A DNA stretch of 63,653 bases, taken from NCBI GenBank assembly GCA_017452475.1, contig JAFTMJ010000003.1, positions 1-63,653 of the forward strand, in the 5' to 3' direction. Position 1 is the first letter of the stretch; each line of letters begins with the position of its first letter. Origin of the DNA: Clostridia bacterium (lineage in GTDB: Bacteria; Bacillota; Clostridia; Oscillospirales; CAG-272). Under the pieces are notes generated by a model. The model was not told the DNA's origin. It made no database searches and saw nothing but the letters and a program-made list of their open reading frames with translations. The translations under genes were made by a program, and so were the position numbers. Shown one piece after another: positions 8,573 to 48,174 of this stretch.

Positions 8573-9763
8573 CTATTCTGCCAAGCTGTCGCGCTTAGCC
8601 ATAACAAATGTGCAAATAATAGTTGGAATTACGCTGATTAGGAAAATGCCCAAAAGAATAAGTATTTCAGGCAGATATACCTTGCCAATGTCAAGCACTA
8701 CACCCATTGATGACACATAGTCGCTCATGAATATTAGGCATAGTCTTGAAGCGCCAAAGGCAAGCAGAGTGGATACCAAGCCGATTAAGCTGTTTTGGAT
8801 AAGGTATAAAAGATTTATCTTCTTCATACTGATACCAATCAAGCGCATTAGTGAAATTTCCTTTGCGGAGTGGTACATATTTAAAAGTGTGATTATGGAA
8901 ATAACGATAATATTCATAATAAGGATGATGGCACAAAGAACAAAAACGATATATTTTGTATCATCAGCCTCATCAAGCACCCCACGCACAACCTCCATTG
9001 GCTCAACCGCCTGCAAGGTAAATGCCTCCTCGTCGTGGGTGATTATTTTTCCGTCATATTCGCTTGCAAGCTGCACTGCATAGGTTGGGTTTAGGGTGTT
9101 AATCAAAATTGCGCAAACGCCGTGGCTATCGTGGTCGTGTCCGTCACCCTCGTCGCCTTCGTGCTCGTGCATTTCCCACAGGGTTTCGATTTGTGTAAAT
9201 ACCACACGGTCAAAGGATGTGTAGGATTCCTCAAGTATACCCACAACAACGATTCCCTTTTCGTGCTTGTCTCCCTCAATTGCGGAGTGGCTGGTGTGAA
9301 TTGTGTCGCCAACCTTCAGCCCGTTTTCCTTGGCAACCCTTGCGCCAACAACTGCTTGACAGGTTTTGTTTTCAGCAAAGAGAGCGCCGTCGCTCAATTC
9401 CTTGCCTTCTAAAAACGCGGGAGTAGTGCCGACAACACTGTTACCGTTATAGTTGTCCGCCATAGCATAAGGAATGGCTTTTACAACCTTGTCATTGTTC
9501 TTAAGCTCAGTATAAACAGAGTATGGGATAGTGCCAAGAGGCTCCTCTGTAAAATACATGGTGTTCATTGCAAGCTGTGTTTTGCTTCCCGCAGGACCCA
9601 CAATTAGGGAATAGTAGCCTGCGTTGTTTGTGATACCGTCACTTACCTGGCTTGAAATATTAAAGGCAAGAACGCCAACGGAGGCAGAAATGATTATGGA
9701 AACAATAATTAAGATAACCTGTACCTTTTTTATAGCCATATTCTTAAGGGCAAATTTAAGCAT
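8573..9763 (-). CDS. FtsX/MacB-like ABC transporter permease with His-rich loop
   Basis: N-terminal TM, large periplasmic-type domain, KEISLMRLIG FtsX motif, 3 C-terminal TMs; HEHEGDEGDGHDHDSH. Confidence 0.85.
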   Translation of the reverse strand: MLKFALKNMAIKKVQVILIIVSIIISASVGVLAFNISSQVSDGITNNAGYYSLIVGPAGSKTQLAMNTMYFTEEPLGTIPYSVYTELKNNDKVVKAIPYAMADNYNGNSVVGTTPAFLEGKELSDGALFAENKTCQAVVGARVAKENGLKVGDTIHTSHSAIEGDKHEKGIVVVGILEESYTSFDRVVFTQIETLWEMHEHEGDEGDGHDHDSHGVCAILINTLNPTYAVQLASEYDGKIITHDEEAFTLQAVEPMEVVRGVLDEADDTKYIVFVLCAIILIMNIIVISIITLLNMYHSAKEISLMRLIGISMKKINLLYLIQNSLIGLVSTLLAFGASRLCLIFMSDYVSSMGVVLDIGKVYLPEILILLGIFLISVIPTIICTFVMAKRDSLAE

Positions 9764-11649: not shown

Positions 11650-13455
11650 ATGTCAAAAAAAGAAAGTATAAGAAAATTAACAACAACAGCTATGCTAATA
11701 GCCTTAAGCGTAATTATCGGTATGTTCTGCAAAACCTTTTTGAACTTCGGGGCAGGACTGTTTAGGGTTACCTTTGAAAATATACCTATTTTAATGGCAG
11801 GCATTATAATGGGACCAATTACAGGCGGCGTGGTCGGCTTGTCCTCCGACCTTTTAAGCTACCTTTTGTCCCCGCAAACATATCCCCCGAATTTGATAGT
11901 TACCTTGGGTGCTACCATGGTGGGAGTTGTGGCAGGCTTGGTGTCAAAATTTTTGGTAAAAAGGCGGGGAAGTGTCCAAATTATCGCCTCAGGAGCCTTA
12001 GCGCACATTGTTGGTTCAATGATAATTAAGCCAATAGGCTTGTTTCAATTCTACCAATACCTTGTGTTCCTAAGGATACCGTTTTATATGGTCATTGCCC
12101 CAATTGAAATTATGCTTATTTGCGTTTTATTAAGGAGGAAAAGCTTTGCCGCCGTGGTAGGATATGTTGATAAAATGAAGAAGGAAGAGGCGCTTGAATA
12201 TATTCATTCAATAAATTGGACCTTTTGCAAGCTGGGGCTTGAAAGGATAGGGGAGCTTTGCACTAAGCTCGGCAACCCACAGGATAGCTTAAGGTTTATC
12301 CATGTGGCAGGCACAAACGGCAAGGGCTCCTTTTGCTCAATGCTTTCAAGCGTATTAAAGGAGCAGGGCTACTGTGTGGGTATGTATACATCTCCATACA
12401 TTAAATGCTTTAACGAGCGCATGCAAATAAACGGTGAGCCTATAAGCGACGGTGAGCTAACGCAAATTACGGAAAAAATTAAGCCCATCGCTGACCAAAT
12501 GGATGACAAGCCAACGGAGTTTGAGCTTGTTACCGCCATTGCTTTTGAATATTTTAAAAATCACAAATGTGACTATGTTGTGCTTGAGTGCGGCTTGGGT
12601 GGCAGGCTTGACTCAACAAACATTATAAACACCCCCGTGTTGTCCGTAATAACAGGAATAGCTCTTGACCATACATCAATCTTGGGGGATACAATTGAAA
12701 AAATCGCAGGCGAAAAGGCTGGCATTATAAAGGAAGGAGTTGCAGTCCTTTGGTGCGGCACTGACAAAGAGGCGCAGGAGGTAATTTCAAATGCTTCAAA
12801 GGAGAAAAACGCACCGCTGTTTACCGTGAACAGAGAAGTGCTGAATGTGAAAAATGCGACACTGGATGGCACCTTTTTCGATTATGGCGAGCATAAGGAT
12901 TTGAAAATCTCCTTGCTTGGCGAGTACCAAACGCAAAACGCAATGAATGTGCTGTGCGCGGTCGATTTGCTAAGGGATAATGGAGTTAAAATTGACGAAA
13001 GCAGCATAAAAGCAGGCTTGGAAAAGGCTAAGTGGCAGGCAAGGTTTGAAATTATATCCCAAAACCCGTTGGTTATCTTTGACGGCTGTCACAACCCGCA
13101 GGGTGTTGACTCCTGTGTGGAAAGCATAAAAAAGTACTTCGGCGCAGAAAAGCTCATTGTTATTACAGGAGTTATGGCGGACAAGGATTACAATTACATT
13201 TCAAACAAAATCGGTCAAATTGCAAAAGAAGTATATTGCATAGCTCCAAATAACCCTCGCGCTCTTTCCGCAGGCGAATATGCCAAGGAATTTGAGAAGC
13301 AGGGCATACCTGCTTTTGGCTGTGAAAGCGTTGGCGAGGCTGCAAAAAAAGCGATTATGCGCGCAAGGGAGCTTGGCGCAGGTGTTGTTTGCTTAGGTTC
13401 CCTTTATATGTACTCGGAGGTTGAAAGCGAAATCAAGAAAAATAGTGAATTTTAG
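11650..13455 (+). CDS. folC: Fusion: folate ECF S-component (FolT) plus folylpolyglutamate synthase/dihydrofolate synthase (FolC)
   Basis: First 175 aa are a 6-TM S-component (AMLIALS, PILMAG...GPITGG); then MKKEEALEYIH...HVAGTNGKGS, YTSPY, LECGLGGRLDSTN, DGCHNP; no stop between; GAGGAGG RBS. Confidence 0.88.
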   Translation: MSKKESIRKLTTTAMLIALSVIIGMFCKTFLNFGAGLFRVTFENIPILMAGIIMGPITGGVVGLSSDLLSYLLSPQTYPPNLIVTLGATMVGVVAGLVSKFLVKRRGSVQIIASGALAHIVGSMIIKPIGLFQFYQYLVFLRIPFYMVIAPIEIMLICVLLRRKSFAAVVGYVDKMKKEEALEYIHSINWTFCKLGLERIGELCTKLGNPQDSLRFIHVAGTNGKGSFCSMLSSVLKEQGYCVGMYTSPYIKCFNERMQINGEPISDGELTQITEKIKPIADQMDDKPTEFELVTAIAFEYFKNHKCDYVVLECGLGGRLDSTNIINTPVLSVITGIALDHTSILGDTIEKIAGEKAGIIKEGVAVLWCGTDKEAQEVISNASKEKNAPLFTVNREVLNVKNATLDGTFFDYGEHKDLKISLLGEYQTQNAMNVLCAVDLLRDNGVKIDESSIKAGLEKAKWQARFEIISQNPLVIFDGCHNPQGVDSCVESIKKYFGAEKLIVITGVMADKDYNYISNKIGQIAKEVYCIAPNNPRALSAGEYAKEFEKQGIPAFGCESVGEAAKKAIMRARELGAGVVCLGSLYMYSEVESEIKKNSEF

Positions 13456-45951: not shown

Positions 45952-46096
45952 TTTTTATACAAGGTGAATAGTTTTACAAACAAAAATGTCCGTTAGGGCA
46001 TTTTTGTTTTATCTCAACCTTTGGTTTGGTTTTGAAACCGTGAGTTTGTTGACAAAAGTCCAAACAAATGGTAAACTAAAATAAAGAGGTGATATT

Positions 46097-46549
46097 ATGA
46101 AACGAGTATTAGCTATGGGCATACCGTATGCAATAAGCCTGTTGCTCACCCTTGTTTTAGGCTTTTTATTTACGGAAAGTATAGTATTTAATGTAGTTCC
46201 TATCATTGCTGCTGCCTTTATGACGCTTCAAATTGTGATTTTTTTGAACAGGGACTCAGCGAAAAACAGCAACATATCAAACGGCAACCTAAGTGATGAT
46301 GAGGCATATAGCCTTTTGAAAGCAGTTGCCTATACTACCGTTTTTACAATTCCTGTGCTGTTTCCGTTTGTGATATTCTTTAGCTTAACCGTAAAAACAA
46401 TTGTATCATCCTTATCGTGGGCTCTAAGCCTTGCAATAGGCTTCGTGGTGTTTAGAATAAAGCACGGGGGCGAAATTAAAAACAGAATAAGCAAGGAGGA
46501 AACAGAGCTTAAGGAGCAGCAAAAAAGAGAGGAGCAGGGTATAATTTAA
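46097..46549 (+). CDS. Hypothetical 4-TM membrane protein
   Basis: Hydrophobic 150-aa ORF, GAGGTG RBS, upstream TTGACA/TAAACT promoter-like pair. Confidence 0.75.
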   Translation: MKRVLAMGIPYAISLLLTLVLGFLFTESIVFNVVPIIAAAFMTLQIVIFLNRDSAKNSNISNGNLSDDEAYSLLKAVAYTTVFTIPVLFPFVIFFSLTVKTIVSSLSWALSLAIGFVVFRIKHGGEIKNRISKEETELKEQQKREEQGII

Positions 46550-46562
46550 CGCGAAGAATAAA

Positions 46563-46755
46563 TAATTATTTCTGTAGGCGTTGCAGTTGTTGTATGCCTG
46601 CTTGCGGTATTTATAGTAGTATACATAAATGTTAACTGTAATTACATTACTCTTTCGGGGGATTTAGACAACGGTTAAATATACTATCGTTGATGAAAAT
46701 GGCAGTATCATTTCCGAAAAAACATATACAAGAAAAACACTATATGGAGAAAATT
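46563..46755 (+). pseudogene. Possible decayed membrane-anchored protein gene
   Basis: Startless frame IIISVGVAVVVCLLAVFIVVYINVN...-stop, followed by KYTIVDENGSIISEKTYTRK in another frame. Confidence 0.3.
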
Positions 46756-46791
46756 AAAAAGATGGGAACCCCGGTTTCCATCTTTTTAATT
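46752..46791. terminator. Bidirectional terminator directly after the displaced rarA 3' copy
   Basis: AATTAAAAAGATGGGAACC-CC-GGTTTCCATCTTTTTAATT. Confidence 0.8.
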
Positions 46792-46986
46792 TATAATTTT
46801 TTACCCTTTATAGCTTCCCAATAGGCTTTTGCGGATTGCCATAGCCTCCCTCAGTGAGGGAGGGGGACCGCAACGCACAAACAAAAACCACCGCCTAAGC
46901 AAATTAAGCGGTGGAAGGAGTTGTAAGCTGTATAGTAGTTATAGCTTTTTGCCCTTGATAGCTTCCCAATAGGCTTTTGCGGATTG
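46791..46986 (-). repeat. 48-bp direct repeat of rarA 3' end (46791-46838 and 46939-46986) flanking a 100-bp hairpin element
   Basis: Both copies encode QSAKAYWEAIKGKKL-stop; 29-bp identical core (46810-46838 = 46958-46986); 4 synonymous differences. Confidence 0.92.
46839..46938. mobile_element. Non-autonomous REP/MITE-like hairpin element (candidate)
   Basis: CCTCCCTC-AGT-GAGGGAGG (46845-46863) and CCACCGC...GCGGTGG (46889-46915); GC-rich relative to flanks; bounded by direct repeat. Confidence 0.55.
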
Positions 46987-48174
46987 TTCGGTTTTATTGT
47001 TCCCAAATTCATAGTATTTTGCATTTTTTAAATCATCGGGCAAATACTGTTGCTCCACATAGTCATTGGGGTAATCGTGGGGGTACTTATAGCCTTTAAA
47101 CAATGGGGCAACCAAATGGATAGGCGTTTCTTGACCCTTGCCGTTTTTAATGTCCTCGCTTGCTTTTGCAATCGCTAAATATGCGGTGTTGGACTTCGGC
47201 GCGGTTGCCAGCATAATGGCGCAGTTAGCAAGAGGGATTCTTGCCTCGGGCAAGCCAAGCTCGCGGGCGCTTTGACATAATGCGTATGTAATTTGCGCCG
47301 CCTGTGGATAGGCAAGACCTATATCCTCACTTGCGATAACCTGTAGCCTCCTGCAGGCGGAAATTATATCTCCTCCCTCAAGCAGCCTTGCAAGGTAGAA
47401 AACCGCCGCGTCGGGGTCGGAGCCGCGGATTGATTTTTGCAAGCCTGAAAGGAGATTGTGATGTACATCACTGTCCCTGTCAAACATTCCTGCGGAAACA
47501 GAGGGTATAAACTCCCTTGCCACGCTTTCGGTGATTTCATCATCACTTGCAAAATAAGCACCCTCAAAAAGGGTAAGGGCGTGTCTTACATCACCGCCTG
47601 CGCAGGATGCCAAAAATTCAAGGGCATCATCTCCTGCTGTCTTACTTAAAGAGTTTTCCTCATTTAAAGCCGCCAAGGCTCTTTTAAGCACAGGCACAAT
47701 CTCCTTTGCGCTAATATGCTTAAACTCAAAAACGGAGCAGCGGGAAATAAGCGCATCGTAAATTGCAAAATAAGGGTTTTCGGTGGTGGATGCAATTAAT
47801 GTTACGCGGCCGTCCTCAATAAACTCAAGGAGAGATTGCTGTTGCTTTCTGTTAAAATACTGTATTTCATCAAGGTATAGCAAAATACCTTTAGAGGAAA
47901 AGACGGAATTTGCTTGGGCAATAACCTCCTTGATATCCGAAAGGGAGGCGGTGGTTGCGTTCAGCTTAAAAAGCTCCATACCTGAGTTTTTGGCAATAAT
48001 GTTTGCAACCGTTGTCTTGCCCGTGCCGGGAGGACCGAAAAATATCATATTGGAAATCCTGCCCGAGCTTATCATCCTTGTTATTACACCGCGAGCGGAA
48101 ACAAGGTGTGCCTGCCCTGCCACCTGCGAAAATGAGGAGGGACGGAGCAAATCTGCAATTGGCTTGTTGTTCAT
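46939..48174 (-). CDS. rarA: Replication-associated recombination protein A
   Basis: LRP..F..V.GQ.HL, FGPPGTGKTT, YLDEI, STTENP, QKSIRGSDPDA, ASEDIGLA, YKYPHDY. Confidence 0.95.
   Translation of the reverse strand: MNNKPIADLLRPSSFSQVAGQAHLVSARGVITRMISSGRISNMIFFGPPGTGKTTVANIIAKNSGMELFKLNATTASLSDIKEVIAQANSVFSSKGILLYLDEIQYFNRKQQQSLLEFIEDGRVTLIASTTENPYFAIYDALISRCSVFEFKHISAKEIVPVLKRALAALNEENSLSKTAGDDALEFLASCAGGDVRHALTLFEGAYFASDDEITESVAREFIPSVSAGMFDRDSDVHHNLLSGLQKSIRGSDPDAAVFYLARLLEGGDIISACRRLQVIASEDIGLAYPQAAQITYALCQSARELGLPEARIPLANCAIMLATAPKSNTAYLAIAKASEDIKNGKGQETPIHLVAPLFKGYKYPHDYPNDYVEQQYLPDDLKNAKYYEFGNNKTEQSAKAYWEAIKGKKL

Follow-up and report, generated by a model that had tools for sequence, protein, structure and literature searches.

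The locus considered here raises the question of why a single bacterial gene should appear to end twice. The window, by which we mean the whole stretch of 63,653 nucleotides that was analysed (contig JAFTMJ010000003.1 of a Clostridia bacterium), contains the rarA/mgsA coding sequence at 46939-48174 on the minus strand. The Pfam domains RuvB_N, AAA, AAA_assoc_2 and MgsA_C, which identify RarA/MgsA, were found on a protein identical to the 411-amino acid product of this reading frame, and its closest homologues are annotated as replication-associated recombination protein A. The last 15 codons and TAA of the gene (46939-46986, minus strand; the inner copy) are repeated in direct orientation at 46791-46838 (minus strand; the outer copy). 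The two 48-nt copies are identical at 44 positions and both translate on the minus strand as QSAKAYWEAIKGKKL followed by a stop codon. They share an identical core of 29 nt (46810-46838 and 46958-46986), and the four differences (46796, 46797, 46803 and 46809 in the outer copy; 46944, 46945, 46951 and 46957 in the inner copy) all lie on the stop-codon side of the core. The outer/inner codons are TTA/CTA, AAA/AAG, GGT/GGC and ATA/ATC, all four pairs being synonymous, with A or T in the outer copy and G or C in the inner copy at every differing site. The untranslated outer copy adjoins a strong terminator hairpin (46751-46792, no strand assigned; 20-bp arms, then a T-run) that is bidirectional and common to rarA and the convergent downstream gene, and 100 nt of non-coding DNA (46839-46938, no strand assigned) separate the two copies. 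A preliminary description of the stretch had reported the duplicate, the core, the stop-side synonymous differences and the adjacent terminator, and all of these were confirmed.

The first part of an answer comes from strains of the same species, which were reached through RarA proteins with 2-3 residue differences. Two of them (L054 and L055) are empty at rarA; the gene ends in ...ATA AAG GGC AAA AAA CTA TAA and is followed directly by ATTAAAAAG... and a terminator. The TAA|ATTAAAAAG junction of these strains is also the junction 3' of the outer copy in the window, and the outer copy is therefore the native rarA end, as the preliminary description had proposed. The 48-nt target, which is present once in L054 and L055, aligns with both flanking copies of the window. 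A third strain (L056) carries one unit of gene end plus inserted element, as in the window, while L057 and L051 carry two, so that rarA is followed by gene end, element, gene end, element, gene end and terminator. The inner copy runs on from rarA in L010, L056 and L057. In the nearest species (G014, G017 and several metagenome-assembled genomes, MAGs; RarA 91-93% identical) the rarA stop codon is followed by an ordinary terminator and there is no duplicate, which identifies the element as a gain. The outer copy and the terminator are thus the native arrangement, and the added DNA consists of the element (100 nt in the window, 101 nt in other strains) and 48 nt of duplicated target. Among strains about 1% diverged or less, the empty, single and double states all occur. 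The preliminary description had envisaged both empty sites and larger cargo at this position; the empty sites exist, and the occupied strains hold one or two units of the element. The occupied strains form one clade with about 10 fixed, evenly spread differences from the empty strains in rarA, which fits a single insertion in their common ancestor, and the outer copy is the same in all four occupied samples.

The surroundings of the site also vary between strains. Compared with L054 and L055, the window is without 404 bp (junction 46665/46666) from the middle of a 189-amino acid gene convergent with rarA. This gene is intact in the empty-site strains, and its last ~125 nt (46666-46790, plus strand) are all that remain of it in the window. 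A homologous terminator hairpin with compensatory changes lies directly 3' of the rarA stop codon in L054 and L055. The changes in the stem are clustered and compensatory (window 46751-46792, GATGGAAACC..GGTTCCCATC; L054 4237-4290, GACGGGAATTCC..ATTCCCGTC), and its flanks are 98-99% identical between strains; the stem is fast-evolving yet paired.

What was inserted is one member of a dispersed repeat family, referred to here as element E. Pieces of the 100-nt spacer are scattered through the 2.1-Mb, 94-contig genome to which the window belongs, in which a structure-aware scan recovered about 70 clear copies and a covariance model 87. With the covariance model E was found in 23 of 24 other species of the genus, with 1-89 copies each, and its distribution elsewhere in the order is patchy (69, 14, 10 and 2 copies in four families, none in the remaining ones). 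The family is non-coding, ranges from 45 to 101 nt, and has the layout AGCCTCC, hairpin 1, GGAGG, a spacer of one or two bases, a second stem-loop whose sequence varies, and GGARGG(R)GYK. In the window the conserved core of the family occupies about 46843-46921 (plus strand, AGCCTCC...GGAAGGAGTTG), and hairpin 1, the A-box hairpin of the family (CCTCCCTC AGT GAGGGAGG), at 46845-46863 (no strand assigned). Both hairpins are backed by covariation as well as by the fold. In an alignment of 29 distinct copies 86% of cells are paired, compared with at most 62% when partners are slid, and double-sided changes occupy 61 cells as against 19.6 in shuffles, with none of 500 shuffles reaching as high a value.

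The copy in the window folds as RNA at -39.2 kcal/mol (z = -4.4) and is a long-loop variant whose second stem encloses a unique 36-nt centre. Every long-loop E has a centre of its own that is present at no other place in the genome. Read in the rarA sense, the centre of the window's copy contains an 11-pair hairpin (46914-46888; CCACCGC..GCGGTGG) followed by TTTTTGTTTG, the whole feature spanning 46878-46914 on the minus strand. In a pattern scan and in the fold it has the GC-rich hairpin and U-run of an intrinsic terminator, and rarA transcripts probably end at this terminator-like hairpin inside E. The ends of the family are ragged; the conserved B-box is 0-16 nt away from the coding copy, and 2-8 nt follow the A-box; they have only a CT-rich, CCTCC-like motif in common and no clear terminal inverted repeats. 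An Rfam scan of 46000-47500 returned sub-threshold chance matches only, none at the gathering score, and exact-pattern scans of the genome contig collection gave no match to the unique centre of E or to the 30-mer of its common short form.

Several further observations concern variants of E and other small repeats. Long-loop copies (window 46872-46907; C47 ~8780-8815) have an extra copy of a stem-2 arm (GCGGT/GCGGTGG) within the unique centre. This looks like a short insertion into the loop with duplication of the arm, and in the window it yields the terminator-like hairpin. Short-form copies often lie inside compound arrays with other short repeats (C7 ~12570-12770, C22, C52, C65, C87, C90, C93 and C94), their partners being motifs of the AATGCAAAATG type and another hairpin family, which ends in GCTCCCTCAG.., and many contigs end there. 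At C6 6679-6860 of the same genome there are three tandem 63-nt units, each with the second half of E alone and a 30-nt spacer. A separate small element family is located outside the window, 3' of the tRNA genes for Leu-GAG, Met-CAT, Ser-TGA, Ser-GCT and Pro-TGG (C28 11521-11816, C37 5330-5646, C87 6615-6905, C11 4553-4835 and C61 20003-20515). In this family the order is native terminator, inverted T-arm copy, shared core GCAGCGTTAAGAAAAACATTCGGGGAATGTTTTTTAGCGGTGACCGAAG, variable part and a displaced direct copy of the last 16-39 nt of the tRNA.

The preliminary description had regarded the insertion as one that targets rarA, and this did not hold up. The layout of gene end, E and gene-end copy was found at six genes of the genome (rarA and five others, with duplications of their own, 37-77 nt) and at at least six loci in other species. 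The other five genes encode a citrate synthase (C47; 61-nt duplication with seven synonymous differences and one D/E), a ZIP transporter (C84; 77 nt, one difference), a uvrA-like protein of 945 amino acids (C76; 37 nt, three synonymous differences and one D/N), an unnamed gene at which 45 nt and E occur twice in tandem (C82), and a gene at a contig end with three or more units (C79). At three of 13 loci in other species that were picked just for one match to E (G013:C19, G015:C9 and G013:C4), E lies at a stop codon and the gene end is repeated on either side of it over 42-68 nt, and closely spaced pairs of E are mostly tandem units of gene end and E (G003:C35, G003:C3 and G015:C18). In another family, E is flanked by a 125-nt duplication with no obvious coding frame (G027:C35).

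The 12 gene-end loci have a consistent geometry. The duplication ranges from 33 to 77 nt and its sequence is specific to each locus, and E has the same orientation at 12 of 12, the CAAYCCYTCC end adjoining the coding copy. The insertion point lies no more than a few nucleotides from the stop codon, and at five loci E sits inside the stop codon or the last sense codons, where the flank completes or supplies the stop (TA|A, TA|G, GG|G TGA, AA|T TAA). Additionally, at all five loci of the window's own genome for which the native downstream sequence was inspected (C79 left out), the native terminator hairpin begins 1-22 nt downstream of the insertion.

Insertion polymorphism and copy-number variation are also found beyond rarA. 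Four strains are empty at the ZIP transporter locus (L087, L089, L091 and L092, ending in ...TTG GGA TAA|TAAAAAGCACCC), several carry a single unit and one is double; the 77-nt target, present once in the empty strains, aligns with both copies at C84. At the citrate synthase locus there are single-unit strains and one double (L096), whose middle copy joins an outer-type 5' part to an inner-type 3' part, as unequal crossing-over between two copies predicts. In a further contig (L093, ERZ27317403 k141_374412) the ZIP stop codon is followed by the first 10 nt of the element (GTGAGTCAAC) and then by unrelated sequence; either the contig is chimeric or E has been the site of a rearrangement. One orthologous gene, ending in ...LDEYTL(T/K)NARRAI(D/E)NML(K/N)*, has E and a duplicated end in two species (G013:C4, L116; G015:C18, L099). 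The copies are near-identical within each species and diverged between them; either one old insertion has undergone concerted evolution, or E has entered this gene end more than once.

The differences between inner and outer copies bear on how the displaced end has been maintained. It was argued in the preliminary description that a neutral duplication would not be expected to give synonymous changes only. At rarA itself this argument is weakened. The empty-site allele (ATA..GGC..AAA CTA) is intermediate, each copy differing from it at two synonymous sites, so two of the changes fall in the inner copy, which is under selection. The other two are third-position C>T changes in the outer copy, and both would be synonymous by chance about 1 time in 10. 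Over all loci of the genome, however, 19 of the 21 nucleotides that differ are synonymous, and in other species the shares are 5 of 5 (G015:C9) and 8 of 11 (G013:C19). The excess of synonymous differences over all loci is real, and a neutrally decaying fossil would not give it. The most economical reading would be that displaced copies are snapshots of working alleles. Both copies at the ZIP locus carry a strain-specific GGA variant, and a GGT/GGG polymorphism is common to outer copies and empty-site alleles; together with the polymorphism of zero, one and two units, these observations fit recombination that resets displaced copies. The copies at C47 and G013:C19 are about 13-20% diverged, mostly by synonymous changes, and at C47 the outer copy ends in the genus-typical ...EER and the inner copy in the rarer ...EDR. 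Polarising the C47 differences by orthologues was abandoned, the nearest species being merely 78% identical and too distant.

The explanation that we favour, and consider probable, is that a small non-coding repeat with two hairpins inserted with a long target duplication and that unequal recombination between the repeats followed. It builds on the insertion polymorphism, the exact target duplication, the family membership, the recurrence at other genes and in other species, the copy-number variation and the hybrid middle copy observed here. E would have entered exactly between the rarA stop codon and the native terminator, with duplication of the 48 bp that lie upstream of the entry site, and the duplication may have been made at insertion, either through widely staggered breaks or by copy-in at a stalled fork. 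The gene-proximal copy would stay the working end, and the distal copy with its terminator would be the original end, now untranslated. If only insertions that preserve the protein survive, the close association with stop codons would be accounted for, as would the stops that E supplies. The long direct repeats then recombine unequally, with gain, loss and hybrid copies as the outcome, and strains carry zero, one or two units. Unequal recombination within the array, and allelic recombination with strains free of E, may also move sequence between the coding and displaced positions fast enough to outpace point mutation of the displaced copy.

Some findings weigh against insertion of this kind. 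No partner enzyme was found in the window's own genome or in G027 among the two families searched, PF01797 and PF01609. PF01797 (Y1/HUH) has no match in the genome of the window with its 87 copies of E or in G027 with its 69 copies, and it does occur in genomes free of E; PF01609 (IS4-type DDE) is absent from the same two genomes and does not track the copy number of E in 40 relatives. The search covered these two families, and MAGs often lose copies of insertion sequences. The ragged ends without clear terminal inverted repeats are unlike those of a transposase-defined element, and the unique long-loop centres mean that there is no evidence for recent copying of the rarA-site E itself. The mostly synonymous divergence of 13-20% at C47 and G013:C19 is hard to obtain through conspecific recombination alone. 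In a separate test, the idea that E carries a stretch complementary to its own target was tried at four loci in both orientations against shuffles and rejected (best p = 0.018 in eight tests), E having no significant match or complement to its targets.

That divergence is more readily accommodated if the new gene end came from elsewhere, a unit of gene end plus E from another strain or species having recombined into the homologous gene end, in which case the inner copy would be foreign and the outer copy native. Such a homing-like or Campbell-type route is close to the proposal in the preliminary description that a foreign element supplied a recoded end by crossover in the core, general recombination taking the place of an integrase. 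The synonymous differences (19 of 21 over all loci of the genome, 5 of 5 at G015:C9) would arise if both copies had once been working ends in different lineages, the differences at rarA all lie on the stop side of the 29-nt core, the outer copy at C47 has the genus-typical ending and the inner copy the rarer one, and excisable tandem units exist. A life cycle akin to this one has been hypothesised for restriction-modification (RM) units (PMC2853133). However, the empty-site allele at rarA is intermediate and not of the outer type, and the strain-specific variant at the ZIP locus is in both copies. An imported block next to E in rarA was ruled out by the tree-like haplotypes and the even divergence along the gene. 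Furthermore, the identical runs at G013:C19, at most about 9 nt long, would not suffice for integration by homology, double-stranded DNA circles of 89-172 bp would be very small, and a founding event that joined E to a gene end would still be required. On balance we regard a donor-supplied end as unlikely.

It is also conceivable that no transposase was involved, if a fork or repair synthesis stalls at the terminator hairpin, copies E from elsewhere and re-enters the original template 37-77 nt upstream. Such template switching would account for the position of the insertion 1-22 nt upstream of the native hairpin at the five loci whose native downstream sequence was inspected, for the ragged ends and variable duplication lengths, for the absence of PF01797 and PF01609 matches, and for the readiness with which E and its flanks form tandem arrays. 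It does not predict the constant orientation or the frequent placement in or right after the stop codon, no genomic source copy with the same centre was found, and there is no clear microhomology at the two rarA junctions; we consider it a decidedly unlikely account.

A site-specific scar, left by an integrase-mobilised satellite or a collapsed island that targets the rarA 3' end, follows the interpretation in the preliminary description, which spoke of a minimal integrase-less satellite or a collapsed island, and is now highly improbable. Direct repeats that contain a gene 3' end and an identical core do resemble attL and attR. The 100 bp between them are nevertheless one of 87 dispersed repeat copies, the 29-nt core has no second locus in the genome, and E occurs at about 87 sites with locus-specific duplications. 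The unrelated flanks of 37-77 nt leave no core common to the insertions. A search for integrases beside copies of the 29-mer had been suggested; the 29-mer occurs only at rarA, the reading frames that neighbour the site are without recombinase domains, and gene order there matches that of the empty-site strains and of related species. An exact-pattern scan for the 29-mer in the metagenome contig collection gave no match.

An assembly artefact, in which two strain alleles of a collapsed repeat are placed in series, was named in the preliminary description as an outcome that would undo its account. The worry is a natural one for a MAG of 94 contigs whose contigs often end in copies of E. The duplicate structure was checked against independent assemblies, namely Logan k = 31 contigs of SRR12529367 and MEGAHIT k141 contigs of other samples. 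In the former, L010 runs from rarA through the inner tail to the start of E, and L052 begins in the downstream genes, crosses the terminator, outer tail and core, and reaches E. The rarA core is just 29 nt long, so L052 holds a 31-mer that links an outer-specific base, the core and the first base of the element. MEGAHIT contigs L051, L056 and L057 (98.9-99.8% identical) cover the full structure, and in these contigs one 141-mer covers the outer tail, the whole element and the inner-type tail, an arrangement held within one k-mer length in both L051 and L056. The middle unit of double arrays moreover has extra variants found in no other unit. The junctions thus recur in independent k31 and k141 assemblies; the duplicate structure at rarA is real, and an artefact is scarcely credible. 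Equally hard to credit is translation of the outer copy or selection for its peptide, which the coding-like evolution of displaced copies might suggest, given unit lengths that place it in frame +1 (148, 151 and 172 nt), +2 (89 and 152 nt) or 0 (99 nt), the lack of a start codon or ribosome site ahead of it, its position beyond the terminator-like hairpin of E, and frame-breaking indels in the outermost copy at G015:C18.

The insertion that we favour can be compared with several known kinds of element. Insertion with long target duplication is reportedly the subject of Nobusato et al. 2000 (Gene 259:99). Such insertions were described from genome comparisons for restriction-modification units, and according to Furuta, Abe & Kobayashi 2010 (PMC2853133) the repeats exceed 30 bp (46-423 bp in tabulated cases), the insert is without mobility genes, the units amplify via their flanking repeats and no mechanism is established. 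E shares with these Nobusato/Furuta insertions direct repeats of more than 30 bp that align to a single empty-site copy (48 nt at rarA, 77 nt at the ZIP gene), an insert without mobility genes (here 100 nt of non-coding hairpins), the ability to overlap gene 3' ends, and amplification of units through the flanking repeats. It differs in that the published cases are kilobase units of RM genes and single events, whereas E is 45-101 nt, non-coding with no RM genes, and occurs tens of times in a genome, invariably with the same orientation and at the stop codon. IS1634 and IS1549 likewise have long direct repeats of variable length (8-514 bp), also without explanation (PMC2266710). The duplications of E vary from copy to copy in the same way (33-77 nt at 12 gene-end loci), but IS1634 and IS1549 are 1.5-2 kb long and encode a DDE transposase, whereas E has no coding capacity in its 45-101 nt, no clear inverted ends and no PF01609 gene in its genome.

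Small structured repeats provide the second comparison. E resembles REP/BIME/REPIN, RUP, BOX, Correia and RPE elements in being short, abundant, hairpin-forming and mostly intergenic, often beside gene ends, and as in REP-type repeats its stems are kept by compensatory change and can supply terminators. The partner of REP is the RAYT Y1 transposase, which is absent from the genome of E, and E has no Rfam match; a REP/REPIN-RAYT system is not supported, no PF01797 RAYT gene accompanying the copies in the window's own genome or in G027. We know of no REP insertion that duplicates 37-77 bp of its target. A miniature inverted-repeat element (MITE) is not supported, given the lack of clear terminal inverted repeats, the ragged flanks, and duplications that vary from 33 to 77 nt instead of being short and of fixed length. 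Integrative elements that bring a replacement 3' end for a gene or tRNA (attL/attR) are like the E locus in having the displaced native end downstream with synonymous differences, but they code for an integrase or an endonuclease and have a single target, whereas E is non-coding and occurs at many different genes. The feature is best filed as one that joins two known kinds, the small structured repeat and the insertion with long target duplication.

Tentatively, a more specific proposal can be put forward, as a possibility that we hold with less than even confidence. E may be the cis-acting part of an undescribed bacterial insertion process, in which some activity of the host, or one encoded in trans, that belongs to none of the tested transposase families sets a gene-less, two-hairpin element of 45-100 nt at the stop codon in a single orientation, with a 33-77 nt duplication of the gene end that often completes or supplies the stop codon. 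The unit of gene end and element would then amplify, excise and spread between strains by way of its long repeats, and in doing so would keep the displaced ends coding-like.

Few features of bacterial genomes are commoner than small hairpin repeats, and to our knowledge the route by which most of them spread is not known. The footprint of E is unusually informative in this respect, with a long variable duplication, a site at the stop codon, and alleles of zero, one and two units that segregate within a single species, and this makes insertion and turnover directly testable. E also extends insertion with long target duplication, so far a matter of RM gene units, to a tiny non-coding element. 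Displaced gene ends of this kind break short-read assemblies, may mislead gene callers and mimic att sites, and it is a population-genetic puzzle that untranslated copies show almost no non-synonymous change. E is abundant in a genus of uncultured Oscillospiraceae-like Clostridia of the rumen and gut group, in which many genes are affected, and its insertions show how the terminator of a gene can be replaced while the protein is left unharmed.
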